From a candidate division WOR-3 bacterium (lineage in GTDB: Bacteria > Hydrothermota > Hydrothermia > LBFQ01 > DSFT01): a DNA stretch of 64,000 nt. Shown here in pieces: positions 3,253 to 59,226 of the stretch (its first letter is position 1; each line of letters opens with the position of its first letter). The notes under the pieces were generated by a model. It ran no database searches. It saw only the letters and a list, made by a program, of their open reading frames with translations, and had not been told where the DNA came from. The stretch is taken from NCBI GenBank assembly GCA_965649115.1, contig CBFGJN010000001.1, positions 568-64,567 of the forward strand. Direction: 5' to 3'. Position numbers and translations under genes: made by a program.

Positions 3253-4828
3253 GCTTCAAATCTGGGCAGGTTTAAAAACTTATGGTGGTTCTAATTGGGA
3301 TCAATTGTGGGGTGTTGATTTTAATGCACCTGGCAATAATATCGTTGCGAACTTATTCTCTATGACATATAAAATTGATGCTTCTACTGGTGCTGATTTT
3401 GTTGTTATCGTCTCTACACAATCTGGAACTCCTGTTTGGGAAAGAATTGTAGGAAGGTCAAATATGAATGAATGGTCTTATAAAATTGCTTATGATAATG
3501 CTGGAAATCCAATTATAGGAGGAGCAAGTTGTGTTCCAAATGGTGGTCCTTCAAATTGTCAATTATCTACGAGTGATAGGGCGTTTGCTATTAAACTTAA
3601 TGGTTCAAGTGGTGCTTTCATATCTGCAAGAGATTTAGCTTCAAGCTGGGGAAGTTCTGATTGGATAAGGATAATGTCAATTAACGCTACAAGTGATGGT
3701 GGATTTGTAGTAGCAGGAGATATATATTACGATTCTTGGGCTGGCGATATTGATGGCTTTGTTGCTAAGTTTGATGCAAGCATGAACTTACAATGGAGGA
3801 GAATTCTTGGAACGACTGGTGCTGAATGGCTAACTACTGCTTTTCAAACAACAGATGGTAATATTGTTGTTGTTGGAACACCATTTAATGAGATTTTTAT
3901 AGCAAAACTAAATGTTTCTAATGGTAATATTATATGGCAAAGAAGGTATCCAAGAACCTATTATGATGATGGGTCTGGAAAGTACTTTACTTGGGCTAAA
4001 CCTTCTTCTGATGGAGGGATTATTATTGCAGATGAGATAAGTGGTGGCACTAATAGAGATGTCCTTTTTGCAAAGTTAAATGGTAGTGGTAATGTTGTTT
4101 GTGCAAGAAGGATAGGTGGTCCTGGTCATGATGTTGGAATTGATGTTGTAGAAGGAGCAAATTATTATTACTTAGCAGGATTTTGGAATGGTGGTGATTT
4201 ATTCTATGCAAAGTTTGATAAAACGAATTGTAATTTAGTAGGTAATGTCAGATATGTTCTATCATCTGGTGATGAATCTGCAAGGGCTATTGATATAAGG
4301 CCTTCCTCTGGAATTCCTTATGTTGCAGGTTATACAAATAGAGCGGGATGGACTGCTGGAAATTATGATGGATTATTAGCAGCAGATAGTGGAACACAAG
4401 ATACTTGTTATTGGAGAAGTTTAACACCAACGACGAATGTTTCTGTTTCATTTAGTAATAGTGGCTCTTGGAGTGATTATGGGAATACGGGAATAAATGT
4501 TTCAAGTGTTACTTATACAACTGTTTCAGTTAATACTAATAAAACTATTGCTTGTGGTTTATTAACACCTGTTTCTAATAATGAAAAATATGAGGATTGT
4601 TATATTTCAATAGCAAAAGATGGTTCATTTTTAACGATAAGGTCAAAGGACAAGCAGGATATAAGGTTAGTAATTTATAGCTCAGATGGTAAAGTGATTT
4701 ATAAGAATGAGTTTAGAAATGTTGAAGGTGTTTTAAATGAGAAAATTAAATTGAATAGTGGAATTTATATCGTTAAAGTTAATTATAAAAAAGGAGAGAT
4801 AAAAAATAAGTTTATAGTTAGGGATTAA
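3230..4828 (+). CDS. SBBP beta-propeller-repeat secreted protein with a T9SS C-terminal sorting domain
   Basis: Repeated DGG(F/I)VVAG and GNIVVVG blocks typical of PF06739-like beta-propeller repeats. The C-terminal approximately 80 aa (…SGIYIVKVNYKKGEIKNKFIV) match the Por secretion tail. The likely start is the second ATG at 3236 (MLFVIELQIW), 8 nt after an AAGGGGG RBS. Confidence 0.7.
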   Translation: MAMLFVIELQIWAGLKTYGGSNWDQLWGVDFNAPGNNIVANLFSMTYKIDASTGADFVVIVSTQSGTPVWERIVGRSNMNEWSYKIAYDNAGNPIIGGASCVPNGGPSNCQLSTSDRAFAIKLNGSSGAFISARDLASSWGSSDWIRIMSINATSDGGFVVAGDIYYDSWAGDIDGFVAKFDASMNLQWRRILGTTGAEWLTTAFQTTDGNIVVVGTPFNEIFIAKLNVSNGNIIWQRRYPRTYYDDGSGKYFTWAKPSSDGGIIIADEISGGTNRDVLFAKLNGSGNVVCARRIGGPGHDVGIDVVEGANYYYLAGFWNGGDLFYAKFDKTNCNLVGNVRYVLSSGDESARAIDIRPSSGIPYVAGYTNRAGWTAGNYDGLLAADSGTQDTCYWRSLTPTTNVSVSFSNSGSWSDYGNTGINVSSVTYTTVSVNTNKTIACGLLTPVSNNEKYEDCYISIAKDGSFLTIRSKDKQDIRLVIYSSDGKVIYKNEFRNVEGVLNEKIKLNSGIYIVKVNYKKGEIKNKFIVRD

Positions 4829-6767
4829 AGAGCATCCAAGCAAGTTTATCTTTTGCCTTCTTTTTAATAGCAATATTTTGATAAAATAGGCTTTTGAAAT
4901 TGTCATTTAAAATATAAAACATTGCAGATAATGTCCAATATGCATCTATTTCTAAAAGAAAAGTAGCAATTTTTGCTTTTTCAATTGCTAAATCATATTT
5001 TTTCAATTTGAAAAGACTTAATGCCCATAAATGATATAAATAACCATTTAAATAACATCTATCTGAAATAATTTTCATTAAACTATCTAATTTTTGATAT
5101 TCTTTCAATTCATAATAAAGAGCAGATTGAAGCTCTCTTATATTTCTATTACAAAACTCATAACTTAAAACTTCATTTATTTTATTTTCCAAAGCTTTGT
5201 AATTTGTAGTTTTTGTTAATTCCAAGAAATTGTACTTATAACTAACTTCATTAAAAAAATTATTATTTTTGTAAATTTTAAAAAAGCAAATTAAACTAAA
5301 TGATGAAAACAACAATAAAAATAAAAATTCATAAAATTTTTTTTGAATTGAAAGAATAAAACAAATAACTGAAAATAAAATTCCAACTAAAATGTTTATT
5401 TCTAAAATTTTTGAGATTATTATAAATGTTGAACTAGTTAAAATTGCCTGAATAAATTTTCCGAAATTTCCAAATAAAGTGTAAGCTGTAAATATAAGTC
5501 CTTTTTTATCGCCTTCAACATCAGATAAATCTTTAATTCCAAATCCAAGTGTTATGCCAATTATAACACTTAAAATAATTTTTTCATTTAAAATCAAAAT
5601 TGGATTTTCCTTATAAAAATAACTAATCCCAAGAACAATGCTCATTAGTGCAATAAAACTTAAATTTAATGTAGATAATAACCAAAATCTTTTAATCCTT
5701 ATAGGTTCAATTGAATAAATAATAGCTGATGATATAATAACAGCTAAAACAATAAAGACACTATAAGAAGTTAAAAATGAAAATAAAATTGAAAGAAGAG
5801 ATAAGGTAATAATAAAAGGTAAAAATTCCTTCTCATTTAAAATTCCATCATTAAAAACATTTTTTTTATTGTTAATTTTGTCAATTTCCCTATCGTAATA
5901 ATCATTTACAATTAAAGCGATTAAAAACGCCAAAAATAATGAAAAAATGATATTGAAAATTCCCGAATAATCAAATATATTTTCAAAAGCTCTAAAATAT
6001 GTGAATTTAACAACTTTAATTCCAACAAAAAATCCAAATATCAATAGTGGTAAATAATATAAAAATTTATAAATTCTCATTTTTAGAATTTTTAAAATAT
6101 ATTCAGGAAAAATCAAAATTAAAAATATCGTTAAAATATATAAATTTACAAGGGCGTACCGTTGAGTATCGGTTTCAATTAGTGAAAAAGAATTAAAATA
6201 AACTTTTGATATAAATCCTGGCATTGAGCCAATTATTGCTAAAATTATTAAAAATGAAATGGTTGTTGAAATTGATTTTAAAAAATTTTTTGAGATTGAT
6301 AGTGTCCATAATAGAATCCCAATAACTGCCAAAAAAATCTCAAATCTCATTCCAGGACTTAATGCCTTTAATTGGACGAATGGATTAAAAACATTCAAAA
6401 GACTAAATATAAATTCTTCAAATGTAAATATATAGCTTGGCCTAAAATTCCCTCCAAAAAATAAATCAATTATTGGTGGTGTTATGATAATAATTGAGGT
6501 TGAAAATATAAATGTTAAAGTTTTGATTATATCTTTTTTATGAATTAATTTGATTAAAAAAGCAAGTGCGAAATAAACTGAAAAATAAAATGTGTATTGA
6601 TGAAAAAATATAAATAAAAATGATTTGTATTCAATAGGATTTGTTAGCATTTTGTTGTGATCAATAGCACCTTCAAGAACACCTCTAATTATTGGACTAA
6701 TTAAAGCTATTATTAAAGCATTAATAAAATTTGTATTTTCAATATAATCAAAAATTTTTTTCATCAT
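4818..6767 (-). CDS. Large polytopic membrane protein with a UbiA-family prenyltransferase core and a C-terminal TPR-like soluble domain
   Basis: Asp-rich motifs NDYYDREID (NDxxDxxxD) and KDLSDVEGD (DxxDxxxD) are embedded in multi-TM segments. There are about 230 extra N-terminal TM residues and about 160 C-terminal helical-repeat residues. The start overlaps the upstream ORF in an ATGA arrangement. Confidence 0.6.
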   Translation of the reverse strand: MMKKIFDYIENTNFINALIIALISPIIRGVLEGAIDHNKMLTNPIEYKSFLFIFFHQYTFYFSVYFALAFLIKLIHKKDIIKTLTFIFSTSIIIITPPIIDLFFGGNFRPSYIFTFEEFIFSLLNVFNPFVQLKALSPGMRFEIFLAVIGILLWTLSISKNFLKSISTTISFLIILAIIGSMPGFISKVYFNSFSLIETDTQRYALVNLYILTIFLILIFPEYILKILKMRIYKFLYYLPLLIFGFFVGIKVVKFTYFRAFENIFDYSGIFNIIFSLFLAFLIALIVNDYYDREIDKINNKKNVFNDGILNEKEFLPFIITLSLLSILFSFLTSYSVFIVLAVIISSAIIYSIEPIRIKRFWLLSTLNLSFIALMSIVLGISYFYKENPILILNEKIILSVIIGITLGFGIKDLSDVEGDKKGLIFTAYTLFGNFGKFIQAILTSSTFIIISKILEINILVGILFSVICFILSIQKKFYEFLFLLLFSSFSLICFFKIYKNNNFFNEVSYKYNFLELTKTTNYKALENKINEVLSYEFCNRNIRELQSALYYELKEYQKLDSLMKIISDRCYLNGYLYHLWALSLFKLKKYDLAIEKAKIATFLLEIDAYWTLSAMFYILNDNFKSLFYQNIAIKKKAKDKLAWMLFNP

Positions 6768-7213
6768 TTAAAATTGTACTCTTTGAGAATAATTATTTTG
6801 TTTTTTATAACTTTTAGTTTATATGGGGCATTATTTAGTTTTTTATAAAAAAATTGTCCATCAATTAAATCAATGACACTATCATTTATCCATATACTAC
6901 TTGGCTTTTCGGTTATTCCAAAAGCATGCCAATTTTTCCTTTCAAAAAATATAATAAAATAATTAGCACTTTTCCCCTTTTCAAAATATATTTTTCCAAA
7001 ATTGGAATTATTATTTCTATCTAAAATCCTATAATTTTTTATTCCTGAAGTTGATTTCGTTGAAATTTTTAATGTTTCATTTTGGATTTTATAGTTATCA
7101 AACTCAAATAACTTGGCATTTAAGTTAAAAATTTTTAGACTATCAAGTGTTATGTTAAAAACAATTAAGCTATCTATTATGAAATTCATATATAACCTCT
7201 TTCTTTTAACCAA
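6764..7213 (-). CDS. Hypothetical protein, translationally coupled between the cysK-like and UbiA-like genes
   Basis: An alternative start at 7189 would overlap the cysK-like stop as ATGA. The stop overlaps the next gene's start. Confidence 0.4.
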   Translation of the reverse strand: MVKRKRLYMNFIIDSLIVFNITLDSLKIFNLNAKLFEFDNYKIQNETLKISTKSTSGIKNYRILDRNNNSNFGKIYFEKGKSANYFIIFFERKNWHAFGITEKPSSIWINDSVIDLIDGQFFYKKLNNAPYKLKVIKNKIIILKEYNFK

Positions 7214-8133
7214 TTTTCATTGAATGCTTTGCTTAAATATCTGCTTCCTCCATCGGGAAATAGAACAACAGCACGTTTTATTTCAGGATGCTCTTTTATG
7301 TACTTTAAAGCACCAACTAATGCCGCTCCTGATGATGGACCTACAAATAATCCCTCATATCTTAATAAATTTAAAGTCATTTCAAAAGCTTCCTTATCAT
7401 ATATTCTTACAAAATCATCAATTACTGAAAAATCTAAGGTTTTTGGTATGAAATCTTCTCCAATTCCTTCAACATCATAAACTCTTGCTTGAACAATTTC
7501 CTTTTTATAAAAATAATCATAGAGAATTGAACCATCAGGATCAATACCAACAATTTTTATTTTTGAATTCATATTTTTTAGAAATTTTCCAACACCAGAA
7601 ATTGTTCCACCTGTTCCAACACCTGCAAAGAAAGCATCAATTTTTCCATTCATTTGATACCAAATTTCAGGTCCCGTTGTTTCATAATGGGCTTTTGGAT
7701 TATTTGGATTTTCGTATTGATTAGGATAAAATGCATTTCTTTCTTTTGCTATTCTTTTTGAAACTTCATAATAACTATTTGGGTCATTTGGTGGCACATT
7801 TGTAGGACATATAACTACTTCTGCACCATAACTTCTTAACAAGTTTCTTTTTTCTTCTGAAACCTTATCTGGCATAACTGCTATAAATTTATAACCTTTT
7901 AGGTTGGAAATGAGTGCAAGACCAAGTCCTGTATTTCCACTTGTTGGTTCAACAATATAAGAGCCTTTTCTTAAAATCCCTTCTTTTTCAGCATGTTCTA
8001 TCATATAAAGTGCTATTCTATCTTTTACACTTCCTGTTGGGTTGTAAAATTCAAGTTTTGCGTATATTTCATAAGATGATGTTGAAAAACTCTTCAATTT
8101 ATAGATAGGTGTTTTGCCTATAAATTCAATCAT
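7186..8133 (-). CDS. cysK: Cysteine synthase family PLP-dependent enzyme (O-acetylserine sulfhydrylase-like)
   Basis: PLP-lysine motif SVKDRIA, the glycine-rich loop GVGTGGTISG, and a TSGNTG block. Confidence 0.85.
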   Translation of the reverse strand: MIEFIGKTPIYKLKSFSTSSYEIYAKLEFYNPTGSVKDRIALYMIEHAEKEGILRKGSYIVEPTSGNTGLGLALISNLKGYKFIAVMPDKVSEEKRNLLRSYGAEVVICPTNVPPNDPNSYYEVSKRIAKERNAFYPNQYENPNNPKAHYETTGPEIWYQMNGKIDAFFAGVGTGGTISGVGKFLKNMNSKIKIVGIDPDGSILYDYFYKKEIVQARVYDVEGIGEDFIPKTLDFSVIDDFVRIYDKEAFEMTLNLLRYEGLFVGPSSGAALVGALKYIKEHPEIKRAVVLFPDGGSRYLSKAFNENWLKERGYI

Positions 8134-8136
8134 AGT

Positions 8137-8152
8137 TTTGAAATTTTAAAGG
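8137..8152 (-). promoter_or_regulatory. Promoter-like palindrome motif immediately upstream of the cysK-like start
   Basis: CACCTTTAAAATTTCAAAACT-ATG in gene orientation. No Shine-Dalgarno sequence is present. Confidence 0.5.
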
Positions 8153-8162
8153 TGAATTAGAT

Positions 8163-8227
8163 GCTGTGCCCAAATAATTCTGAAAATCGGCACTTTTAAA
8201 ATACTCATTTTTTAATTATTTATCTTG
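8163..8227 (+). repeat. Fragment (5' end) of the repeat family
   Basis: GCTGTGCCCAAATAATTCTGAAAAT start box only. Confidence 0.5.
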
Positions 8228-9427
8228 TTATCTTTGTTCTTCCAGTTCAATATCAGGAAGATATTGACCGAAACCTTGAACATTTGAAAATAAAAGTTTA
8301 TAATCTCCTGTTCCAAGTTGGTCATAAAATTTAAATTTTTTATTTCCATTATAATAAATCCATATTACATAAGATTTCGTTCCAAGAGCAACTTCTTCCC
8401 TTCTTATATCATCTGGTTGTCCAAATAAAATGTAAATTTTGCCCATATCAGTATATCTTCCTTTTTTGAATGGTGTTGAAAATTTTAAATCTGCTTCAAT
8501 TACTCTTTGTCTAAATATAGGATAGAAAGAACCATCTGGATCTTTAATTTTCCAAAACTTTTCAATCCATAAATTTTTACTTTTTATATCCTTTATATTT
8601 CTAAATTCATTTAATTCACTTGGTGAAGCTATATAATCAATGAAATACCTTATCTCATCGTTGAGAACTATTCCTTCTCTTTGAATGATAAAGTAATGCT
8701 TTAAAACTTTTTTTATGTTTAAACCCAAATCAACAATTTCAAATTTTAAATTGTACTCTCCATCAGATATATTATTTAGTGGAATTTTTCCACTAACTAC
8801 AAGTTGTTCTTTATCCTTTATGATTAATTGAGGGCTTGATATTAAAATTACACTATCATTTTTATCTTCAATGATGTACCTTAAAAAAAGTTTTTGACTA
8901 TCCTTCTTAATATTGTAAATTTCAAAAAAGTAAAAAATTGTATCTTTGAAAATATTTGATGGATTTGGTAAAAATCCAATTCCATTTCTATAAAATGGAC
9001 TATTTAAGCTGTCTTCATAAAGTGAACTTGATAAGACAAGAGAAGAAAAATTCAAATTACTATCTTCTTGAATAATTAAAGGAAATTCAATTTTTGAAGA
9101 CTTACTTTTCGTTTTAACTTCAAATTTTATTGTATATTTCCCAGGTTTAGATAGAATTTCATAACTATCCACCATATAAATAGCATTTTTTGAAATTTTT
9201 TTGTCTTTTTTTTCTTCCATAAGTTTTTGCCTATCCAAGAAAACTCTTAAATATATTTGATAATTTTCAGAAATATCGTTTGGGTTTATTGAATAAACAA
9301 AATTTACAATATAAATATCACCTGATAGTTTAAAGTATATAGGTTCAACATAACCCCTAATAGCTCCATCTAAAACGTAACTTTTATTATCTAATGTAGT
9401 CAGTCCAACTAGAAGGAGCAAGTTCAT
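8228..9427 (-). CDS. GWxTD domain-containing protein
   Basis: C-terminal region contains FWKIKDP … GRYTDMGKIYILFGQPDDI … YVIWIY … LGTGDYKLLF, matching the GWxTD-domain architecture. Confidence 0.7.
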   Translation of the reverse strand: MNLLLLVGLTTLDNKSYVLDGAIRGYVEPIYFKLSGDIYIVNFVYSINPNDISENYQIYLRVFLDRQKLMEEKKDKKISKNAIYMVDSYEILSKPGKYTIKFEVKTKSKSSKIEFPLIIQEDSNLNFSSLVLSSSLYEDSLNSPFYRNGIGFLPNPSNIFKDTIFYFFEIYNIKKDSQKLFLRYIIEDKNDSVILISSPQLIIKDKEQLVVSGKIPLNNISDGEYNLKFEIVDLGLNIKKVLKHYFIIQREGIVLNDEIRYFIDYIASPSELNEFRNIKDIKSKNLWIEKFWKIKDPDGSFYPIFRQRVIEADLKFSTPFKKGRYTDMGKIYILFGQPDDIRREEVALGTKSYVIWIYYNGNKKFKFYDQLGTGDYKLLFSNVQGFGQYLPDIELEEQR

Positions 9428-10400
9428 AATCGCCTGTCCCGTACTTATCTATAAAAATAAACCTAAGATTTAAGCTTTCATAGTACCATATTTGATATGG
9501 TCTATCGTAAAGATTTAGTTCGCTTTTCTCTATATAATCAGGAGGTCCGTACCTTAAATAAACTAATCCCATAGCATTTATTTTGTTATTTTTAGTATAA
9601 TTTTTTATAACATAATGGTATCTTTGTAAAAATAATTCTTTCTCTTCGTTTAAATTTGTATTTGGAGTTGGGTCCTTATCTTTCCAAAAACTTTCCCACG
9701 CTTTCTTTAAGTCATTGTTGTTCTTTTTAAGATATTTACTAAATTCTCCTGAGTAAAGGTAGTTAAGAGCAAAGATAAGGTTTTTAAGTTCATCGGAAGT
9801 TAGGTTAAATAGTCCAAGCTTTTGAAATTCAAATGTTCTTGAAATTTTAAATTTTTTATATTTAAATTCTAATTTGCCTTCATATCTATCAAGTTTCAGG
9901 TTTTTAATTTCAAGAGGAATTTCTACTTCATTTTCACCATCTCTCAAATAAAATTTGTAGTTCTTCTTCGTTTTACTTTTTAAACTTTCAAATTTCATTT
10001 CAATATTTATAGTATCGTTAATTTTTGAATAGATTGGGACTTTTAATACTAAAAAACTATCATTTTCTTCATATTTATTTTTATTAGTTATAGGCTTTCC
10101 AAGAATAAAATAATCATTGCTTTGTGGTTTTAAGTTAAATGAAGTGTCATAAAGTGTAGCATCTGTTTTTTGGTTTTTAACTAAAAAATTAACTTTATAG
10201 CTTTCATTATATTTTAGGTTAATTTTTAAATTAAGAGAACTATCAAATTCAACAATTTCAGATTTAAAAATTTTTTTGTTTTCAAAAACATCATAAAGAG
10301 CTCTATAATTTCCTTTTTCATTTAAAACAAAATTAATAACTAATAAGTAGTTTTCTTTTTGAGGAATTTCTATGACTTGAATAAAATTAATAAGCCACAC
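9387..10400 (-). CDS. GWxTD domain-containing protein (paralog of 8228-9427)
   Basis: Same C-terminal block: FWKDKDP … GLVYLRYGPPDYI … YQIWYY … YGTGDYELAP. Confidence 0.7.
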   Translation of the reverse strand: MWLINFIQVIEIPQKENYLLVINFVLNEKGNYRALYDVFENKKIFKSEIVEFDSSLNLKINLKYNESYKVNFLVKNQKTDATLYDTSFNLKPQSNDYFILGKPITNKNKYEENDSFLVLKVPIYSKINDTINIEMKFESLKSKTKKNYKFYLRDGENEVEIPLEIKNLKLDRYEGKLEFKYKKFKISRTFEFQKLGLFNLTSDELKNLIFALNYLYSGEFSKYLKKNNNDLKKAWESFWKDKDPTPNTNLNEEKELFLQRYHYVIKNYTKNNKINAMGLVYLRYGPPDYIEKSELNLYDRPYQIWYYESLNLRFIFIDKYGTGDYELAPSSWTDYIR

Positions 10401-11235
10401 CTATCTCCCTCGCAAGTTGTTTTAGCCTCTTTATTCTTTCACTTGTTGGTGGGTGGGTTGAAAATAGTTTTTGTAATCCTTCCAAAACGGGAGGAATTAT
10501 AAACATATGACTTGTTGCTGGATTTGCTTGGAATTGATAATCATAAACACCCTTTTCAATTTTTTCAAGGGCATTTGCTAATGCTATTGGATCTCTTATA
10601 AATTTTGCTCCTGTCTCATCTGCTAGGAATTCTCTTGAACGGGATATAGCCATTTGTATTATTATAGCTGAGATTGGGGCAAGTAGAATTATTAATATAT
10701 CTAAAATTGGGTTATGATTTTGCCTTTCGTCTGAACTCCTAAAAATAAACATCCATCTTCCTATTTCAATTAAATATACAATAGCACTTGCCAAAACTGC
10801 GGAAATTGTAGATATTAAAATATCTCTATTTTTTATATGAGCTAACTCGTGAGCTATAACACCTTTTAATTCTCTTTCATCAAGTATTCTCAAAATACCA
10901 GTTGTGAATACAACTGCTGAATGATTAGGGTTTCTACCTGTTGCAAAGGCATTCGGAGCTGTTTCTTCTATTATATAGACCTTTGGCATAGGAAGATTTG
11001 CTTTTATTGCAACTTCCTTTACAAGTTCATATAACTTTGAACTTTTGTCAACTTCTTTTGCTCCGTACATTTTAAGGACAATTTTATCAGAGAACCAGTA
11101 AGAAAAGAAATTAAATATAATTGCAATAACGAGAGCAATCGTAAGTCCTATTTTCCCTCCAAAGTATCCACCAATCACAATTAAGAGAGCAGAAAGCAAC
11201 GTCAATAATATAAGTGTCTTTATTTGGTTAGTCAT
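10387..11235 (-). CDS. htpX: Zinc metalloprotease HtpX
   Basis: N-terminal TM helices, HEXXH motif AHELAHIKNRD, and M48 family length. Confidence 0.9.
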   Translation of the reverse strand: MTNQIKTLILLTLLSALLIVIGGYFGGKIGLTIALVIAIIFNFFSYWFSDKIVLKMYGAKEVDKSSKLYELVKEVAIKANLPMPKVYIIEETAPNAFATGRNPNHSAVVFTTGILRILDERELKGVIAHELAHIKNRDILISTISAVLASAIVYLIEIGRWMFIFRSSDERQNHNPILDILIILLAPISAIIIQMAISRSREFLADETGAKFIRDPIALANALEKIEKGVYDYQFQANPATSHMFIIPPVLEGLQKLFSTHPPTSERIKRLKQLAREIGVAY

Positions 11236-11680: not shown

Positions 11681-12109
11681 ATGAAGGTAAAAATGCTAAC
11701 AATAACAATAATCCTAGTAGGGGCAATATCTGCTGTAATGCTAATGGGACAATCTAAAACTAAACAGACTACTGACTTTACAGTATATATAAGAGCTTAT
11801 GATACGAATATACCAGAAGCTACGATAGAAGGTGTCCAAATAAAAAACGTAAGGCAATTCAATGTAATAAATGAACCATCTGACTTAGTTGTAAGAAAAG
11901 GAACCACTGTAAATGTAAGAATCATAAATGAATCTCCTATAAGTGAGAACTTTTCAATAGATGGTTATAATGATGTAAATTGGACACTGAAAGCAAAGGA
12001 AACCAAAGAATTTTCATTTGTTGCCAATAAAGTTGGTTCATATACTATATGGTGTAATCTACATCCTAAGAATATTCATCTTCCTGGAACATTTTCAGTA
12101 ATAGAATGA
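11681..12109 (+). CDS. Secreted cupredoxin-like (putative copper-binding) protein
   Basis: Signal peptide, then a C-terminal [10 protein letters not shown] block resembling a type-1 copper ligand set. Co-oriented and overlapping with the SCO1 gene. AAAGGAGGT RBS. Confidence 0.45.
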
Positions 12110-12642
12110 AAAAAATTATCATTTTTGGACTCCTTTTGGGGTCCTGCCAAAAAAATTTCAATGGAATGGTTTTGAAAGAACCAATTAAAGTAGAGCAAGA
12201 TTTCTTTTTGTTTGATTACAATGGAAATATAATTAATTTAAAAAACATTCTGAAAAGTTATAACTTAATTTTCTTCGGATATACAAGTTGTCCTGATGTA
12301 TGTTTTTTAGCTCTCAAAGATATTTCTGAAACTTTGAGATATGTCAAAAAGAAAGAAATAAATGTTATATTTATAAGTTTAGATTTAAAAAGGGATAAGC
12401 CTGAAATTGTAAAAAGTTATTTAAGCAAATTCAATAGTTCGTTTCTTGGATTTATTCCAAAGGATGAAAATGAATTGTATAAAATTTCAAAATTTTTCTC
12501 AGTTGCTTATGAAATAGATACTTTATCAGGTTATATTGGTCATAGTGCTTTTATTATATTCGTAAAAGGTAATAAAATTATTGAGTACTTTCCAATTGGG
12601 ATGAAACCTATTGATATAGCATCTGATATAAATAAATTCTAA
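12106..12642 (+). CDS. SCO1/SenC family copper chaperone (cytochrome oxidase CuA assembly)
   Basis: Thioredoxin-fold CxxxC motif [10 protein letters not shown]. Confidence 0.75.
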
Positions 12643-27896: not shown

Positions 27897-28032
27897 CTGT
27901 GTCTAGCCTAAAAATAAGGCTTCGCCTTATAAATGCCCATTTTTCGGCTATGGGAGGGCTTAAATTCAATAATTTCATTAAAAATTTTACAAGTTCTTGA
28001 TCGTCAAGGACTTAACACTATTTATTGGACAA
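27897..28032 (+). repeat. Compact repeat copy. Its 3' end overlaps the C-terminal codons of ORF 27987-28556.
   Basis: GCTGTGTCTAGCC … AAGGCTTCGCCTT (hairpin with swapped stem) … TTTTCGGCTATGGGAGGG … TCAAGGACTTAACACTATTTATTGGACAA. Confidence 0.7.
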
Positions 28033-28556
28033 TTGTATAATTGCAAATTTCTATTTATAATTTCTTTTAAATTTTTCAAAGTTTGACTTTTTTCAAAATT
28101 AGTGAAAATAATTTCTAAAACTTGTTCAAATTTAAATTCAGATTTGAGTTCCTTCAATTTGCCATAATTAGTTCCTTTTATTTCTTTATATATTTCATTT
28201 ACAAAACTTTCAATTGCTTTTGGTTTGACAATCCAAACTTGATGTTTGGGATTTTGTTTCTTTTTAAAAATTATCATTAAATCATTTTCGCATGAATTAT
28301 AATCTTCATGGAGTTTTAATTTTTTAGCGAGTTTATCAAAATGTTGTTCATTATCATAATCAAAAACTGCAATTATTAGTTTATTTTTATTATTATTTTT
28401 AATTCTTTTACAATAAGTTTTTATAACTCCATCATAACCACCTGTTTCTACTTCATCTGAGCAGTGTAAAACATCACAAACAGCATTTAGTTTTAAAAAA
28501 TCTCGTAATTTCTTAAAAAATGAGTAATCATTATTACATTCAACAATAAAAATCAT
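27987..28556 (-). CDS. Small TOPRIM-like protein (DUF4276/DUF4435-like), partner of the AAA_21 ATPase
   Basis: N-terminal IFIVEC (conserved Glu) followed by IIAVFDYDNE (DxD) about 60 aa later, the TOPRIM arrangement. Start overlaps the ATPase stop (ATGA). Confidence 0.5.
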   Translation of the reverse strand: MIFIVECNNDYSFFKKLRDFLKLNAVCDVLHCSDEVETGGYDGVIKTYCKRIKNNNKNKLIIAVFDYDNEQHFDKLAKKLKLHEDYNSCENDLMIIFKKKQNPKHQVWIVKPKAIESFVNEIYKEIKGTNYGKLKELKSEFKFEQVLEIIFTNFEKSQTLKNLKEIINRNLQLYNCPINSVKSLTIKNL

Positions 28557-29647
28557 TTTTTACTGAAATATTCAGTATTAAGGAAGGGGTCTAAATCTTC
28601 TTCTTGATAAATTTTTTCAGTTATATCAATAATTTTTGTTTCTTCATTCTCAAATTTAAATAGAAGAACTGCAACATCTTTATTTTCCTTACCTTCTCTA
28701 ACAAGTTTTCTAAATAGATAAGGATTATGAGTTGAAATGAAAAATTGGTTTTCACTATAATAAATATCTTTTGCCATTTCAAAAATAAATGGAGGGAAAA
28801 CTTTACTTTCAGGTTCTTCAAAAATTAAAGTTGAATTTTCTGATGAATGAATTGCTGATAAATAAAAGATGTAGTTCCTCAAAGTATCTGCTAACAATAG
28901 ATAAGAAAGTCTTATAATTTTCCCTTCCTTTTTCTTAACGACATAGTACTCCTTATCATCTACATCTTCGTAAATTTCATACCCTATTTTTTGAAGATAA
29001 AGTCTAAATCTCTCATAAACTTCTCTGTTTCTATTTAAAATTCCAAATATATTTTTGCCATAAGGTGGAATAAGGGAAGGATAATAAAAATTGTATCTTT
29101 CTTTTTCTTCTAAATCCAAATGATAATATCTTTTTACAGAATTTAAGGGTTTTGGTACTTCAATTTCACCAAGGTATTCAATTCCAAAATTTCCTTTATA
29201 AAATTTAAATTCCAAATTTTTTGAAATGGAAAAACTATAAAAAATTTTTCCTTTCATTTTTTCTGTGAGTTCTAAAAGATTTTTTACTTGTTCCAATTCT
29301 TCTTCAAATTTTAATTTGTCTTGATACCTTATTAGAAATCCGCAAACTGATTCAACATAATCAAAAATAATAAGTGAAAATTCTTTGTTAATATCAATAT
29401 AAATTTTTTCTTGAATGTTCTTAAAATAAAAAAGTTCATAGGGGGAGTTAATACGAATAATTTTTTTGTCAATTAACATTGGTGATTTCGTTAATAAAAA
29501 ATTTATAGGGTTTAAAATAGTTAAGGCTTCTAAAAAGTTGCTTTTCCCTGAGTTTGGACTTCCAATAATTAGATTTATTCTTCTTATATTTTCCAACTTA
29601 ACATCTTTAAGGGTTTTGAAATTTCTTATACTGATTTCTCTAATCAT
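28553..29647 (-). CDS. AAA_21/ABC-type ATPase of the OLD/PARIS-AriA-like defense family
   Basis: N-terminal ISIRNFKTLKDVKLENIRRINLIIGSPNSGKSNFLEAL (SMC-like Walker A), a LIFEEPESKVFP Walker B/D-loop, and an STHNPYL H-loop. Confidence 0.65.
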   Translation of the reverse strand: MIREISIRNFKTLKDVKLENIRRINLIIGSPNSGKSNFLEALTILNPINFLLTKSPMLIDKKIIRINSPYELFYFKNIQEKIYIDINKEFSLIIFDYVESVCGFLIRYQDKLKFEEELEQVKNLLELTEKMKGKIFYSFSISKNLEFKFYKGNFGIEYLGEIEVPKPLNSVKRYYHLDLEEKERYNFYYPSLIPPYGKNIFGILNRNREVYERFRLYLQKIGYEIYEDVDDKEYYVVKKKEGKIIRLSYLLLADTLRNYIFYLSAIHSSENSTLIFEEPESKVFPPFIFEMAKDIYYSENQFFISTHNPYLFRKLVREGKENKDVAVLLFKFENEETKIIDITEKIYQEEDLDPFLNTEYFSKK

Positions 29648-35115: not shown

Positions 35116-36756
35116 TTATTCTAAATTCAATATCTTTTTTATTATTTCATAGTGATTTTTAATTTCGTTATCATCAGGTTTCTTTTCATAGGCTTGCTTG
35201 ATGTACTTAAAAGCTTCTTCGTATTGACCTTTTTTAAATAATGCCCAGCCATAAGAATCTAATATAGATGCATCGTTTGGATTTAAAGAAATTGCCTTCT
35301 TTATTAATTCAAATCCTTTATTTATGTCTATATTTTCATTAACTAACATATATCCATAATTATTATAAACCATTGAAGCAAAAATGATAAACTGTTTATC
35401 AGTTGTTGTATCAATTATTTCCTGAATGATTTTTATCGTTTCTTCATAATAATATTGTGCTTTTTGGAAATCACCTTCTTTATTATATTCTTCTGCCAAT
35501 TCAAAATATGCTGAATAATCTTCTGGTTTTCTTTTAGTATATTCAATTAGAACCTCCTTTGCTTTTTTTTGAAATCCTATCCTTTTATAAAAATTTGAAA
35601 GTTCTCTATATCTTGATAAATTATCTTTATCATAATCAACTGCAAGTTTATAGTATTTTTCAGCAAGTTTAAGTTTGTTTTCATTTTCAAAGATGTTTGC
35701 CAGTGCAGAGAATAATGAGGGTTTTTTTGATTTAACACCTAATGCTAAATTTTTAGCTTCTTCATATCTCTTATCTTCTACTAACCAATGAATTTTTAAA
35801 ATTTTATAGTCATCTTTGAAATCTAAAATTTTATCAATAACTTTATAAGCTCTTTCCTTCATTTTAAGTTTATAATATGAGTAAGCAATAAAAAAGTCAT
35901 TGTCAGTTGAATAAGATAAACTATTTGCTAATTGTAAATTTTCTATCACTTTTGAGTAAAGACTATCTTGTTTTTTATCCTCTGCTATTTTATAATAAGA
36001 AAAACCCTTATATTTCCAACAATAATCTTCATCAGGGTAAGTCTTTAACAAATCTTCACATATCTCAATAACCCTTTCATATTCTTTATATCCAAATAGC
36101 ATACTCACAAGAAATTTATTAAATTCTTTTTTTTCTTTTAAAGAATAAATATATGCTCTAACACCCGTTAAAATTGCATTTTCTTTATCTCCTTTTTTGT
36201 TATAAATAGATGACAATGCAGCAAGAACTCTAAAATGTAATTCTTGATTTTTTAAAAAAACATCAATTGAACCTTTTATCTCAAAATTACTTAAAATACT
36301 ATCTGCTTTTTTTAGATAAAGTAAAGCTTGGTCATAATTCTTTTTTCTAAATAAAATTATTCCATAATTTACAAGATTTTCTAAATTTGATGTATCCATT
36401 TCATAAAGCTTTTTAAAAATACTATAAGCCTCTTCTATTTTATCCATATTATCTAAAAAAATTGCTTGATATTTGAGAAAGTTAGAATTTTCAGGAAATT
36501 TAAGATATGCTTTTTTTGACCAATTATAACCACCTTTTAAGTCTTTTAAACTTCCATGAATCCTTATTATTAAATCATAAGCTGAACTATCATCCACATA
36601 TTTAATATATTTTTTAAGTAATTTTAAAGCATTTTTGTAATCTTGTTTTTTTAAATAATAATTTGCTAATTCCTTTAAAGCAAATGTATCTTTTGATTTT
36701 ATTCTTTGTTTTAATTTAATTTCTGTTGTATCAATTAATAAAATTAAAAAAATCAC
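35116..36756 (-). CDS. TPR-repeat protein
   Basis: Multiple 34-residue repeats with W/LG/Y/A/F/A/P spacing ([20 protein letters not shown] and similar). Confidence 0.65.
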
Positions 36757-38138
36757 TCAGATGGTTTGTAAAACTTATCAAGGTACTCTTTTGAAATTCT
36801 AACTAATTCGCTTCTTGGTAGTATTGAGAGTAATTTCCAGCCAACTTCAAATGTTTGTTCTATCGTTCTACCTTCAAATCCTTGATTTATCATAACTTTT
36901 TCAAATTCGTCAGCGAATTTAATGTACTTTCTATCTATTTCAGATAAAGCATCTTCTCCTACAATTGCAGCAAGTCTTCTATTATCTTTTCCTCTTGCAT
37001 AAGCGGCAAAAATTTGATCTGCCCATTGTCTGTGATACTTTTCAGTTTTACCTTCACCAATTCCATTATTCATTAATCTTGAAAGTGAAGGTAATATGTC
37101 AATTGGTGGGAATATACCTAATCTATGTAATTCTCTTGATAGAACAATTTGTCCTTCTGTAATATAACCTGTTAAGTCTGGTATTGGATGAGTAATATCA
37201 TCATCAGGCATGGTTAAAATTGGAATTTGTGTAACTGAACCTTTTTTACCTTTAATTCTTCCTGCTCTCTCATATATACTTGCTAAATCGGTGTACATAT
37301 AACCAGGATAACCTCTTCTTCCTGGAACTTCCTCTCTTGCTGAGGAAATTTCTCTCAGTGCTTCACAATAATTTGTAATATCAGTTAAGATAACAAGGAC
37401 ATGGTAATCTAATTCAAATGCAAAGTATTCAGCAACAGTTAGGGCAAATCTTGGTGTTAAAATTCTTTCAATAGTAGGGTCATCAGCTAAGTTTATAAAT
37501 GCTATTAATCTATTACTTGCTCCCATTTCTTCAAATTGTTGTTTAAAATAAGCATATTCTCTTTGGGTTATACCAATTGCACCAAATACAATTAAGAATT
37601 GCTCACCTTCTCCTCTAACGGTAGCATATCTCATAATCATTGCTGCTATTTCATTTGCAGGAAGTCCTGAACCAGAAAATATAGGTAATTTTTGGCCTCT
37701 TACTAATGTGTTAAAACCATCAATAGCAGAAATTCCTGTTTGTATAAAGTCAGATGGTTTTTCCCTTGCGACAGGGTTTATTGGAGAACCTATGATTGGT
37801 AGCTTCTTTTCGGGTATAACTGGACCAAGGTCATCAATTGGTTCTCCTCTTCCATTGAATATTCTTCCAATCATATTTCTACTTACTCCAAAACGAATAA
37901 CATCTTCAACTAATTTTATTTTACATGTTTTAACATCAAGTCCAAGTGTTCCTTCAAGAACTTGAATGACTGCAAATTCTTCTGTAACTTCAAGAACTTG
38001 ACCACTTCTTTTAATACCCGTTTCAGTTTCTATTTCAACTAAAGCTCCATAAGAAAGTTCCTTAGCATTTTTTACTATTAATAGAGGTCCAGATATGTAA
38101 TCAACGGATGTCCATTCTTTAATAGATAAGTCAGTCAT
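36753..38138 (-). CDS. atpB: V/A-type ATP synthase subunit B (non-catalytic)
   Basis: High-confidence B-subunit blocks: [13 protein letters not shown] (degenerate P-loop), [25 protein letters not shown] and PSLSRLM. Confidence 0.9.
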
Positions 38139-40469: not shown

Positions 40470-41423
40470 ATGCTTTGGATAACCAACCTTTTTCCAAAGA
40501 TAGGTTCATCTTATGGCAAAGAAGTAGATAATTTATTTTGGTTTATTTTTTGGATTTCACTATTTTTCTTTTTAATTGTTCAAATTGCTATGATTTACTT
40601 TGTAATTAAGTATAGAAATAAAAAGGAGGAGGAAGTTAGCACTGTTGAAGGAAACAATTTTCTTGAAATAACTTGGACAATTATTCCAACGATTATTCTT
40701 GTTATTATATTCTTTTATGGAGTTTATGTTTTTGATAACTTCCAAAGAAGACCTCCCGCTAATAGTATAGAGATAAAAGTTATTGGTCATCAGTGGTGGT
40801 GGGAATTTCAATATCCAAATGGTTATACTACAAGAGATACACTTATTGTTCCTACTAATAAACCAGTAAAACTCATTATGACATCAACTGATGTAATTCA
40901 TAGTTTTTATGTAAGAAGTTTTAGAATTAAAGAAGATGCTGTTCCTGGAAGATATACTTGGACTTGGTTTAAAGTAGTTGAACCTGGTGTTTATGATATT
41001 CAATGTGCGGAATATTGTGGTTCAAGACATTCAAAAATGATAGGATATATTAAGGCTGTAAATAGAAGTGATTTTGAAACGTGGCTGGCAAGTGTTTCCA
41101 AAGAAACTGATTTATCTTCATTATCTCCTGTTGAGAAAGGTAAGAAATTATCTCAAATTAAAGGTTGTACAAGTTGTCATTCAGTTGATGGTTCTCAACT
41201 TGTAGGACCAACTTGGAAAGGATTATATAACCATGAAGTAGTTGTTTTAGAGAATGGAAAAGAAAAGAAGATATTAGCAGATGAAAATTATTTGAGAGAA
41301 AGCATATTAAATCCAAATGCTAAAATTGTCAAAGGTTTTCAAAATATAATGCCTTCTTATCAGGGTCAATTAAGTGAAGATGAGATTTTAGCAATCATAG
41401 AATATATAAAAAGTTTGAAGTAA
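40470..41423 (+). CDS. coxB: Cytochrome c oxidase subunit II with fused C-terminal cytochrome c (caa3-type)
   Basis: CuA ligands H…CAEYCGSRHSKM and a heme-c CTSCH motif. Confidence 0.9.
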   Translation: MLWITNLFPKIGSSYGKEVDNLFWFIFWISLFFFLIVQIAMIYFVIKYRNKKEEEVSTVEGNNFLEITWTIIPTIILVIIFFYGVYVFDNFQRRPPANSIEIKVIGHQWWWEFQYPNGYTTRDTLIVPTNKPVKLIMTSTDVIHSFYVRSFRIKEDAVPGRYTWTWFKVVEPGVYDIQCAEYCGSRHSKMIGYIKAVNRSDFETWLASVSKETDLSSLSPVEKGKKLSQIKGCTSCHSVDGSQLVGPTWKGLYNHEVVVLENGKEKKILADENYLRESILNPNAKIVKGFQNIMPSYQGQLSEDEILAIIEYIKSLK

Positions 41424-41439
41424 AAGGAGGGATTTAGAT

Positions 41440-43047
41440 ATGCTAAATAAACTTTTAAGCCATGAACCAAGACCTGGGATATTAGGTTGGTTGTTTTCAA
41501 CAGATCATAAGAGAATTGCCCTTCTTTATTTTTGGACAATAATTTTCATTTTCTTAATAGCGGGTATTTTCGCACTCTTAATAAGAACTGAACTTTTCTT
41601 ACCTGGAAAGCAAATTGTTGATTCTGATACTTATAATAGATTATTCACACTACATGGTGTAATGATGGTTTTCTTAGTTATTGTTCCTTTAATACCTGCG
41701 GTCATGGGCAATTATTTAATTCCGCTTATGATAGGAGCAAGAGATGTTGCATTTCCAAAATTAAATCTTTTGAGTTATTGGATATTTTTAACAGGTGTTA
41801 TTATTATCCTATCTTCACTTATATTTGGTGCTATTGATACAGGTTGGACATTTTATACACCATATAGTCTTAAGACAGGCGGTGGTGTTTTATTGGCGCT
41901 ATTTGGTGTTTTTGTTGTTGGTTTTTCATCTATTTTAACAGGTCTGAATTTTGTCGTTACAATTCATAGGTTAAGAGCACCTGGAATGACATGGAGCAAA
42001 TTACCCCTTTTCGTTTGGGCTTTATATGCTACTTCACTAATGAATGTTATTTCAACACCTGTTATTGGTATAACATTATTACTATTAATTTTGGAAAGGG
42101 TTTTTGGTGTTGGCTTCTTTGATCCTACAAAAGGTGGAGATCCTTTAATGTTTCAACATTTCTTTTGGTTTTATTCTCATCCCGTTGTTTATATAATGAT
42201 ACTTCCAGGAATGGGTATAATTTCTGAATTAATTGCAGTTCATTCAAGAAAAAGGATATTTGGTTATTGGGCAATGGCTGCTGCCATTTTTGGAATTGCT
42301 TTTATTGGTTTTATTGTTTGGGCTCATCATATGTTCGTTAGTGGTATGTCTGATGTTGCAAGGTGGGTATTTTCATTCTTAACATTTTTTGTTGCTGTTC
42401 CAACAGGTGTTAAAATTTTTAATTGGGTAGCTACACTTTATAAAGGTTCAATTAGATTAACAACACCTATGTTATTTGCTTTGTCATTCTTATTCCTTTT
42501 TACAATTGGTGGATTAACGGGATTATGGCTTGCTACTATTGCTACTGATGTTTATTTACATGACACATATTTTGTAGTAGCACACTTTCATTATGTAATG
42601 GTTGGAGGTGCTATAACTGCATTCTTTGGTGGATTGTTCCATTGGTTTCCTAAAATTACAGGTAGAATGTACAACGAAAATTGGGGTAGGTTAGGAGCGA
42701 TTCTTATATTTATAGGTTTTAATCTAACATTCTTCCCACAATTTCTCTTGGGTATGCAAGGTATGCCAAGAAGATATTGGGATTATTTACCTGAATTTAC
42801 ATTATTAAATCAAATATCTACAATTGGTGCATATACAATAGCTCTTGGTGTTTTCATTTCACTAATAACATTACTTATAGCTTGGAGAAGAGGACAAAAA
42901 GCTTCTGAAAATCCTTGGGGTGGTGCAACACTTGAATGGAAGACTTCATCTCCACCACCATATTATAATTTTGAAGAAATACCACATGTAGAACACGGAC
43001 CTTATGATTTTGAACATTTATTAAAGAAAGAAAAAGTTTCTCAATAA
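41440..43047 (+). CDS. coxA: Cytochrome c oxidase subunit I
   Basis: 12-TM heme-copper oxidase with WAHHMF and HFHYV blocks. AAGGAGGG RBS. Confidence 0.95.
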   Translation: MLNKLLSHEPRPGILGWLFSTDHKRIALLYFWTIIFIFLIAGIFALLIRTELFLPGKQIVDSDTYNRLFTLHGVMMVFLVIVPLIPAVMGNYLIPLMIGARDVAFPKLNLLSYWIFLTGVIIILSSLIFGAIDTGWTFYTPYSLKTGGGVLLALFGVFVVGFSSILTGLNFVVTIHRLRAPGMTWSKLPLFVWALYATSLMNVISTPVIGITLLLLILERVFGVGFFDPTKGGDPLMFQHFFWFYSHPVVYIMILPGMGIISELIAVHSRKRIFGYWAMAAAIFGIAFIGFIVWAHHMFVSGMSDVARWVFSFLTFFVAVPTGVKIFNWVATLYKGSIRLTTPMLFALSFLFLFTIGGLTGLWLATIATDVYLHDTYFVVAHFHYVMVGGAITAFFGGLFHWFPKITGRMYNENWGRLGAILIFIGFNLTFFPQFLLGMQGMPRRYWDYLPEFTLLNQISTIGAYTIALGVFISLITLLIAWRRGQKASENPWGGATLEWKTSSPPPYYNFEEIPHVEHGPYDFEHLLKKEKVSQ

Positions 43048-43059
43048 GGAGGCTTAGAA

Positions 43060-43686
43060 ATGGAGCATATTTTAGAACATAAACATATTGAAACTACTCA
43101 TAGAGATGATTTTTCTGCTAAACTTGGAATGTGGCTATTCCTTGCAACTGAATTACTTCTTTTTGCAGGTCTATTCACACTTTATTTTTTATTTAGAGGA
43201 ATATACTTACCATTTTTTCATGAAGGTCAAAAGGAACTTCAACCAATTATAGGACTTATAAATAGTATTGTTTTATTTATTGGAGGATTAACAGCAGTTT
43301 TATCTATATCAGCAGCAAGAAAAGATAATAAAAACCACTTAATTCTATTTCTTTTTATTACAATTCTAACGGGATTAACATTTCTTGGAATAAAAGCTTA
43401 TGAATATGGTTTGAAGTTTGAGCATGGTTTATTCTTTAATATGGAACACTTTAAAAGTTTGCCAAATGGTGAAAAAATTTTCTTTTCTTTATATTTTGTA
43501 ATGACTGGTATTCATGCTTTACACGTTTTAATAGGTGTTATATTATTTTCATTTTTGTTATTTTTTGCCATTAGAGGAGATTATAATTCAAAAAACTACA
43601 TTCAAGTAGAAATAGGGGGATTATATTGGTGTCTTGTTGATTTAATATGGATGTATCTTTTTCCTCTTTTATATTTAATTAAGTAA
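43060..43686 (+). CDS. coxC: Cytochrome c oxidase subunit III
   Basis: Five to seven TM helices. The MWLFLATE and GIHALHVLIG blocks are typical of subunit III. Confidence 0.8.
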   Translation: MEHILEHKHIETTHRDDFSAKLGMWLFLATELLLFAGLFTLYFLFRGIYLPFFHEGQKELQPIIGLINSIVLFIGGLTAVLSISAARKDNKNHLILFLFITILTGLTFLGIKAYEYGLKFEHGLFFNMEHFKSLPNGEKIFFSLYFVMTGIHALHVLIGVILFSFLLFFAIRGDYNSKNYIQVEIGGLYWCLVDLIWMYLFPLLYLIK

Positions 43687-44444
43687 TGGATTTTTTAAAA
43701 AAATTTTTTGAAGTTTTATATAATTTTAATGCTTTTAAGGAAATTTCAAGTAAGAACTACATTTTGCCATCTATATTATTTTTTATAATTTCCACGATAA
43801 CATTCAATAGCTTGAAAATTTCACTAAATTACGATAAATATAGAGAACTTATGTTAAATCAAATGGATACTAATCTTAATGAAATAAAGAAAAATTTGAA
43901 AAAGCAGGATTTAACTACACAAGAGATTGAAAAACGCCTTGAAAATTATAAAAATGTTTATTTGGCTTCAATATCACTTGAAATTATTATTCTTTCTGAA
44001 ATAGCAAAGGGAATTTTTATCCAACCTATTATTCTTTTAATTCAGTCTCTTGCTTTCAGTTTGATATTTTTAATTTTTTCAAAAGTTCAAATAAAATTAG
44101 AATTTAAGAAATTATTTTCAATTTTAATTTATTCAAAATCTCCAATTATTATAGGCTCATTTATTGTTTTTATTTTATCAGTTATTCTACAAAATCCATT
44201 CTTTTCTTTAAATTTTTCAAATTTTATTCCTTATGAGATTGTTTCAAATAATGATTATTTAAAGGCTTTAAGAAATACACTTTATCATGTTGAACCATTT
44301 TCAATTTTAAGTTTAATTTTGCTTTCTTTTGGAATAAATAAAGCTTTTGAATTTCCACTAAAAAGTGTTATTTATGGTGTTTTTGTTATATATTTTTCAT
44401 TTTTGATTTTAAATGCTTTGTTCTATCTAATTTTTTTTAAATGA
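43686..44444 (+). CDS. Hypothetical membrane protein co-transcribed with the cox operon
   Basis: Overlapping start/stop with coxC. Multi-TM. Confidence 0.4.
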   Translation: MDFLKKFFEVLYNFNAFKEISSKNYILPSILFFIISTITFNSLKISLNYDKYRELMLNQMDTNLNEIKKNLKKQDLTTQEIEKRLENYKNVYLASISLEIIILSEIAKGIFIQPIILLIQSLAFSLIFLIFSKVQIKLEFKKLFSILIYSKSPIIIGSFIVFILSVILQNPFFSLNFSNFIPYEIVSNNDYLKALRNTLYHVEPFSILSLILLSFGINKAFEFPLKSVIYGVFVIYFSFLILNALFYLIFFK

Positions 44445-59207: not shown

Positions 59208-59225
59208 GCTTTAAAATTTTCAAAC
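59208..59225 (+). promoter_or_regulatory. Promoter-like palindrome GCTTTAAAATTTTCAAAC immediately upstream of the riboswitch
   Basis: The riboswitch P1 stem begins 1-2 nt after the motif. Confidence 0.55.
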
Positions 59226-59226
59226 A

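Follow-up and report, generated by a model that had tools for sequence, protein, structure and literature searches.

A CBS-type enzyme gene and a two-gene UbiA module as probably unrelated neighbours in a candidate division WOR-3 genome

Three minus-strand genes in a 64,000-nucleotide stretch of a candidate division WOR-3 genome (contig CBFGJN010000001.1, positions 568 to 64,567; hereafter the window, with a G+C content of 22–34% in 2-kb windows) raise the question of whether genes that overlap one another also work together. They encode a 315-amino acid enzyme dependent on pyridoxal phosphate (PLP) with a PALP domain, a 141-amino acid protein and a 649-amino acid UbiA-type membrane protein, and an initial annotation had proposed that they form a pathway for a prenylated, thiol-containing or amino-acid-derived lipid. 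We arrive at a different reading, namely that two unrelated units lie side by side, a housekeeping enzyme of the cystathionine β-synthase (CBS) type and a two-gene UbiA module. As an overall picture we consider this rather better than an even bet, although our confidence in its specifics is much lower.

If the three genes formed a pathway, the CysK/CBS-like enzyme would supply a thiol or amino-acid head group, which prenylation by the UbiA protein would turn into a novel lipid, and some observations are consistent with this. The order PALP gene, 141-amino acid open reading frame (ORF) and UbiA gene, followed by a convergent gene with a type IX secretion system (T9SS) tail, is kept at 12 loci of close relatives, among them L005-7, L013, L026-31 and L033, and the genes of the window overlap and are probably co-transcribed. 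However, the loci with the trio all belong to near-identical relatives (97–98% identity for PALP, 83–87% for the UbiA protein), and at lower identity the UbiA gene keeps other company. Orthologues at 61% lie behind speE, PvlArgDC, a second speE and a 141-amino acid ORF (L001, L002, L016), those at 69% behind sucD and a 142-amino acid ORF (L003, L014, L022-25), and those at 68% behind either nuoA, nuoB, a Uma2 gene and a 142-amino acid ORF or two Uma2 genes, an NmrA gene and ORFs of 79 and 143 amino acids (L106-108); the orthologue at 66% has sucD directly upstream, without the small ORF (L008, L015). No PALP gene was found within 5–8 kb on either side of these orthologues at 61–69% identity (L001-L003, L008, L014-16, L106-108), and more distant family members (L004, L009, L010, L012) also have no PLP partner. 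The PALP gene, for its part, has orthologues at 94% identity that are followed, with a 4-nt overlap, by other genes, namely two Uma2 genes, a carboxyltransferase gene and a GT4 gene in L032 and a gene for a 549-amino acid Rossmann-like protein in L034. The trio is thus confined to loci whose UbiA protein reaches an identity of at least 83%, and it is not kept beyond the genus. Such a lack of conservation in related genomes is what the initial annotation itself had named as decisive against its proposal, and the pathway reading therefore fails; we hold it to be highly improbable. The PLP gene is a chance housekeeping neighbour that stands outside the conserved module, and no new pathway is to be inferred from the cassette.

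Two further comparisons bear on the same question. The ATGA overlaps at 7189–7186 and 6767–6764, in each of which the stop codon of the upstream gene overlaps the ATG of the next, are plainly present in the sequence, as first described. For the middle gene, alignment with the orthologues A1 (61–63% identity) sets the start at the ATG at 7189, giving 141 residues, in place of the TTG at 7213 of the ORF list (6764–7213, 149 residues). However, 19 of the 37 pairs of neighbouring same-strand ORFs in the window overlap, and exact four-base overlaps are found in 11 of the 37 (ten ATGA, one GTGA). As a sign of coupling such overlaps are therefore at background level, reflecting compaction or habit of the genome rather than a specific functional link. 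The genes also differ in selective regime, with a dN/dS (the ratio of nonsynonymous to synonymous substitution rates) of 0.02 for the PLP gene, measured against close relatives, and of 0.16 for the UbiA gene.

The places where gene order changes in related genomes have features of their own. Uma2-family genes (putative endonucleases), single or in tandem, sit at rearrangement points both beside the PLP gene and beside the pair of small ORF and UbiA gene (L032 5945-6999; L106 4041-4595; L107 77-1154; L108 2583-3660), and they may mark or drive local gene shuffling. The Rossmann-like protein, of 548 or 549 residues, occurs in L032 (1027-2673, minus strand), where it lies behind sucD, and in L034 (794-2443, plus strand), where it overlaps the stop codon of the PLP gene. 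The two copies are 76% identical, and the protein is soluble with an N-terminal GxGxxG motif and no Pfam match; no homologue of it is present in the window.

Upstream of the PLP gene, the single promoter palindrome that had been proposed to drive all three genes was not borne out by comparison. What is present is an AT-rich 12-nt inverted repeat (8143–8154 and 8191–8202; the arms stand 36 nt apart and pair at 11 of 12 bases), the distal arm of which is replaced by unrelated sequence in the closest relatives (L005-7), where only the roughly 30 nt beside the ATG of the PLP gene are conserved. A promoter-like match, TGGGCA-18-TAAAAT, lies at 8172–8143, and promoter-like matches in the region number 36 as against 29.8 ± 4.2 in shuffles, and so are not clearly enriched. 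With one arm unconserved, and in a genome so rich in AT, the repeat lacks support as a regulatory palindrome. Directly upstream on the same strand are two tandem genes for GWxTD-domain proteins of 399 and 337 amino acids and an M48 peptidase gene (8228-10400 and 10387-11235, minus strand), and no terminator-like site was found between the GWxTD genes and the PLP gene.

What, then, is the 315-amino acid enzyme? It has a full-length PALP domain (PF00291, 272 bits against a cutoff of 35), so that the first description of it as a PLP enzyme stands as regards the fold-type II fold. It scores 314 against 351 for the CysK model, and its nearest solved relatives are CBS cores. The best NCBIfam match is the CBS model TIGR01137 (414 bits against 510, model positions 5–320 of 457), which falls below its cutoff because the Bateman module is missing; the protein is likewise below the equivalog cutoffs for PRK10717 (364 against 387), CysM (254 against 394) and the cysteate synthase CapA (347 against 600). 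On the last of these scores, we rejected a cysteate-synthase or sulfonolipid link for the PLP gene. Its best matches in the PDB are the CBS cores of Rv1077 (E 6e-95), Coxiella (4ofx) and Legionella (6vju), with CysK structures about 50–70 bits behind. It aligns end to end with these short bacterial CBS/CysK-family enzymes (E 6e-95 to 1e-77) and differs from CBS in having neither the Bateman (CBS-pair) module nor the haem domain. The sequence contains the motifs SVKDR, TSGNTG, GTGGT and GIGEDFIP, of which we take the first to hold the PLP lysine, the second to be the TSGNTG loop, the third to be the phosphate loop and the last to be CBS-like. Judged by its sequence, it is a putative CBS-type catalytic core without a Bateman module, and a fold-type II β-replacement enzyme. 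It is 98% identical in protein and 93% in DNA to its close relatives, which gives the dN/dS of 0.02; such very strong purifying selection fits the pattern of central, housekeeping metabolism, and we propose that it would serve housekeeping sulfur amino-acid metabolism. Pfam scans of the ORFs of at least 120 amino acids in the window revealed no other gene for sulfur assimilation or isoprenoid synthesis.

The other unit has a more consistent composition. Eleven homologues of the 141-amino acid protein were found, all from WOR-3 where a host is named, and they are 60–94% identical among themselves. The ORF evolves under purifying selection (dN/dS 0.07–0.10), and wherever it is present the UbiA gene follows it immediately, although what lies upstream varies among at least five contexts; the pair is found behind PALP, speE, sucD, Uma2 and the 79-amino acid ORF. 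Comparison of these loci indicates that the conserved unit, within the Hydrothermia clade, is the 141-amino acid ORF together with the 649-amino acid gene. Sequence searches of Pfam, NCBIfam and the PDB gave no match for the small protein, its profile retrieves nothing from the PDB at E values up to 10, and its sequence, as read, lacks both a cysteine that could be lipidated and an obvious signal peptide. At its other end the 649-amino acid gene overlaps a convergent gene by 11 nt (4818–4828), an overlap kept in close relatives (for example L005 9943-9953); the convergent gene encodes a 532-amino acid protein with SBBP-like β-propeller repeats and a T9SS sorting tail.

The 649-amino acid protein had been described as carrying UbiA-type Asp-rich motifs in the middle, about 230 additional N-terminal membrane residues and a TPR-like C-terminal domain, and each of these elements was borne out (Table 1). 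Its residues 260–474 match the UbiA family of Pfam (PF01040) with 74.3 bits against a cutoff of 34.2, and the motifs NDYYDREID and DLSDVEGD contain all seven Asp and Asn residues expected of the two motifs, each invariant or nearly so in 49 diverse relatives. An AlphaFold model built from 14 homologues (predicted local distance difference test score, pLDDT, 82; predicted template modelling score, pTM, 0.72) has 15 long hydrophobic helices, after which comes a domain made up of helices throughout, and its core has the nine-helix UbiA fold, with tabulated match values of 20.4 for AfUbiA (4tq3), 19.9 for digeranylgeranylglyceryl phosphate (DGGGP) synthase (6m31), 17.4 for UBIAD1, 17.3 for ApUbiA and 17.0 for decaprenylphosphoryl-5-phosphoribose (DPPR) synthase (8j8j). 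Because the motif residues are kept and the dN/dS is 0.16, the protein is, as far as its sequence can tell, very probably an active UbiA-type enzyme. In comparison to other UbiA enzymes (AfUbiA 4tq3, DGGGP synthase 6m31, chlorophyll synthase 9sas; PF01040), which have about 290 amino acids, it has about 650, adding a six-helix N-terminal domain and a C-terminal TPR domain. A further difference is that the Hydrothermia clade has lost the Arg-Pro found after motif 1: residues 303–305 (about 5853–5861) are Asn-Val-Phe in this clade as against Arg-Pro-Leu in the rest of the family and in other UbiA enzymes, and two lysines stand just upstream of them.

Table 1. Positions of the three genes, the domains and motifs of the 649-amino acid protein, and the region upstream of the PLP gene
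Feature	Position	Strand	Details
PLP enzyme gene	7186..8133	minus	315 aa, ORF list
Small-protein gene	6764..7189	minus	141 aa from ATG at 7189
UbiA-type membrane protein gene	4818..6767	minus	649 aa
N-terminal domain of the 649-aa protein	6078..6767	minus	residues 1-230, six predicted membrane helices
UbiA-superfamily core	5253..6077	minus	residues 231-505, nine predicted membrane helices
Asp-rich motif 1, NDYYDREID	5880-5906	minus	residues 288-296; N288, D289, D292, D296
Y351-S-x2-P-x-R-x-K359 motif	UbiA core	minus	sequence
Asp-rich motif 2, DLSDVEGD	5508-5531	minus	residues 413-420; D413, D416, D420
C-terminal TPR-fold domain	4818..5252	minus	residues 506-649 and stop codon, all-helical, predicted extracytoplasmic
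Intergenic region	8134..8227	minus	94 nt upstream of the PLP gene; holds the inverted repeat and a -10-like TAAAAT near the ATG

Where this enzyme belongs within the superfamily is indicated by its scores against curated models. All NCBIfam equivalogs score far below their cutoffs (ChlG 52 against 313, BchG 48.5 against 212, HPT 36.7 against 226, DGGGPS 27.9 against 296 and EboC 22.7 against 250), and there is no match to the NCBIfam models for 4-hydroxybenzoate prenyltransferase, MenA or haem O synthase; none of the characterised UbiA subfamilies therefore includes an orthologue of this protein. Its closest sequence matches are in the group of chlorophyll synthase and DGGGP synthase (E 2e-17), which suggests an uncharacterised UbiA subfamily on that side of the superfamily. 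The good fold match to DGGGP synthase might then point to an enzyme of that type making archaeal-type ether lipids, as proposed for bacteria of the Fibrobacteres-Chlorobi-Bacteroidetes (FCB) group. One paper (PMC7852524) reports homologues of DGGGP synthase from the FCB group, from related candidate phyla and from a Parcubacteria genome, and another (PMC6431249) has WOR-3, Edwardsbacteria, Elusimicrobia and Parcubacteria among its surveyed phyla, which would agree with such a role. However, the NCBIfam DGGGPS equivalogs reach only 23–28 bits against cutoffs of 296–353, the characterised enzymes have about 280 amino acids and neither the N-terminal domain nor the TPR domain, and no gene for geranylgeranylglyceryl phosphate synthase or glycerol-1-phosphate dehydrogenase occurs in the window or in any fetched locus. 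WOR-3 genomes, moreover, also have UbiA paralogues of the ordinary size of about 300 amino acids, and we regard a part in ether-lipid synthesis as decidedly unlikely. These paralogues, of about 298 amino acids, share about 33% identity with the window protein's core, and in both genomes concerned they lie directly downstream of a gene for an 800-amino acid OmpA/PorE-like outer-membrane protein (the two genes together at L018 5515-8879 and L020 5589-8921).

The N-terminal domain is the least familiar part of the protein. Modelled alone (pLDDT 86, pTM 0.86), it is predicted as a compact bundle of six helices, in which the loop joining helices 3 and 4 contains a further, short helix, and the family shares a signature in it, R28-x3-E32, H56, P98-x2-D101, Y112, G139-x-R141-x-E143 and P183. 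Its conservation within the clade is similar to that of the core (61–88% against 67–89%). No Pfam family matches it in any of 49 family members at E values up to 10, NCBIfam holds no counterpart, a PDB sequence search found no match, and a Foldseek comparison of its fold with the PDB gave E 0.9 at best and TM values of at most 0.27. Two possible origins were set aside. A duplicated and degenerate half of UbiA is ruled out by an hhalign probability of 0.4%. The absence of any Pfam match, with the same E limit and the same 49 members, speaks against a domain like lycopene cyclase or CruF fused to a UbiA enzyme like lycopene elongase, a reading also disfavoured by the hosts, which are non-pigmented candidate phyla.

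For the C-terminal domain, structure and sequence give different answers. Its last 127–141 residues are predicted to form a superhelix of helix-turn-helix units with fold matches of 15.4 to MamA, 15.0 to a consensus TPR and 15.0 to the TPR of OGT, while the best TPR profile match, TPR_2, has an E value of 0.36 and 11.5 bits against a cutoff of 27. Lys and Arg residues in the loops number 18 on the proposed cytoplasmic side and 6 on the other, a bias which in the model would place the N-terminus on the cytoplasmic side together with both Asp-rich motifs, the arrangement of known UbiA enzymes, and the TPR domain probably outside, in the periplasm. The same model would put most of the signature residues of the N-terminal domain in the outer half of the membrane. 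The GT-C family protein O-mannosyltransferases (TMTC/PMT-like), polytopic enzymes of the envelope that end in periplasmic TPRs, have the layout predicted here for the 649-amino acid protein, with many membrane helices and then an extracytoplasmic TPR array. The shared layout suggests, by analogy, that the TPR domain may bind a macromolecular acceptor or partner.

Such a layout invites comparison with DPPR synthase, in that the core might load a sugar-phosphate onto a polyprenyl phosphate at the inner face, with the N-terminal and TPR domains using this lipid-linked donor at the outer face on an envelope polymer or protein. Outward-facing membrane enzymes with TPRs are typically glycosyltransferases that use polyprenyl-linked donors, the polar cluster of the N-terminal domain and the TPR domain are both predicted on the outer side, and Patescibacteria, which have small genomes with few lipid pathways left, still keep the family. 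Against this, the core matches DPPR synthase (E 4e-4) less closely in sequence than it matches users of prenyl diphosphates, namely chlorophyll and DGGGP synthases, the distant-member loci examined contain no linked sugar-nucleotide or phosphoribosyl pyrophosphate genes, and the N-terminal domain resembles no GT-C enzyme. We consider this reading unlikely.

How widespread the architecture is became apparent from a profile search of 1.84 billion representative proteins, with hits counted as clusters at 50% identity. The combination of N-terminal domain and UbiA core was found in 951 clusters at E≤1e-30; the best 150 of these are mostly 520–560 amino acids long, with alignments that span profile positions 1 to about 510 and cover both domains. 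The N-terminal domain is kept in relatives of about 540 amino acids from other phyla. Members with a named host come from Patescibacteria/Parcubacteria, Candidatus Edwardsbacteria, Elusimicrobiota and WOR-3 (including Caldipriscus), and homologues of the 649-amino acid form, where named, from metagenome-assembled genomes of "candidate division WOR-3" and "Candidatus Hydrothermia". Their annotations go no further than "UbiA family prenyltransferase" or the automatic labels of a 4-hydroxybenzoate or homogentisate prenyltransferase. Of ten longer members that were examined (731–888 amino acids), eight have canonical C-terminal Pfam TPRs and a ninth has one weak TPR match, and the window protein, with its three parts, therefore represents a variant that recurs in the family rather than a unique one. 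The initial annotation was right that the architecture is unfamiliar, in the sense that no curated family or solved structure covers it, but the fusion itself is present in hundreds of clusters. A search for related loci with a narrower alignment returned only WOR-3 loci and the UbiA paralogues of ordinary size, a protein search with the 49-sequence alignment added no further members, and literature searches found no paper describing the architecture.

Taking these observations together, we suggest that a rearrangement in a compact genome may have placed the PLP gene beside the module of the 141- and 649-amino acid proteins. The nine-helix UbiA core would bind an isoprenoid diphosphate at the cytoplasmic face through Mg2+ and its two Asp-rich motifs, and would transfer the prenyl chain to a membrane-resident acceptor. 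The invariant polar residues of the N-terminal domain (R28, E32, H56, D101, Y112, R141 and E143) would cluster in the outer half of the membrane, where this six-helix domain could provide a second site, facing outward, at which the lipid product is bound or processed further; the TPR domain, predicted to be extracytoplasmic, may dock a periplasmic partner or acceptor, and the 141-amino acid protein could be a lineage-specific accessory subunit of the membrane protein. Gene structure, domains, catalytic residues, selection, neighbourhood and family size are direct observations here, whereas topology, the roles of the N-terminal and TPR domains and the substrates are what we infer from them.

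Several points weigh against our reading of two unrelated units and of what the module may do. The PLP gene is likely to be co-transcribed with the other two genes in this genome, and a local regulatory or metabolic link, limited to this one genus, is possible. The small ORF is absent from one orthologous locus (L008) and is therefore dispensable there. With the substitutions R303N and P304V, the Hydrothermia clade is without the Arg-Pro after motif 1, and its chemistry may therefore differ from that of the rest of the family. The placement of the N-terminal domain residues towards the outer face rests on predicted helices and the positive-inside rule applied to one sequence. Distant members (L004, L009, L010, L012) are surrounded by housekeeping genes, with no shared partner and no PLP partner.

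Other parts of the window offer some context for the organism. A cytochrome c oxidase operon of the aa3 type (40470-45424, plus strand) encodes COX2 with a fused cytochrome c, COX1 and COX3, followed by two ORFs without a Pfam match, and elsewhere the window encodes a cupredoxin/SCO1 pair and, in addition, a V-type ATPase subunit (11681-12642, plus strand; 36753-38138, minus strand). The oxidase operon and the V-type ATPase subunit fit the aerobic WOR-3 cluster described with the first isolate, strain sy37 (PMC12285271). A cobalamin riboswitch (59213-59379, plus strand; 86 bits, E 1e-19) immediately precedes three ORFs that overlap one another (59366-60841, 491 amino acids; 60835-61920, 361 amino acids; 61917-63074, 385 amino acids), none with a Pfam match, which may be an uncharacterised B12-regulated system for uptake or salvage. 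An overlapping pair on the minus strand (27987-29647) encodes an AAA_15/AAA_21 ATPase (364 amino acids) and a DUF3226 protein (189 amino acids), a layout reminiscent of small anti-phage defence gene pairs.

What remains of interest at this locus is a sizeable UbiA subfamily, mostly from uncultured phyla, defined by a membrane domain that has no Pfam family and no solved counterpart. Among its hosts are the Patescibacteria, a group with small genomes and with poorly understood biochemistry of membrane and envelope. Discovery of the substrate would correct the automatic annotations "4-hydroxybenzoate polyprenyltransferase" and "homogentisate phytyltransferase" and could reveal a new isoprenoid-dependent envelope reaction. 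One speculative form of this, to which we give a low probability, is that the N-terminal domain is a new catalytic or lipid-handling module which, with the UbiA core and often a TPR domain, makes up a bifunctional enzyme that makes its product inside and uses it outside. If so, a prenyl-linked intermediate would be built at the cytoplasmic face and delivered or transferred at the outer face, and Patescibacteria, Elusimicrobiota, Edwardsbacteria and WOR-3 would have in common a previously unrecognised system of envelope modification.

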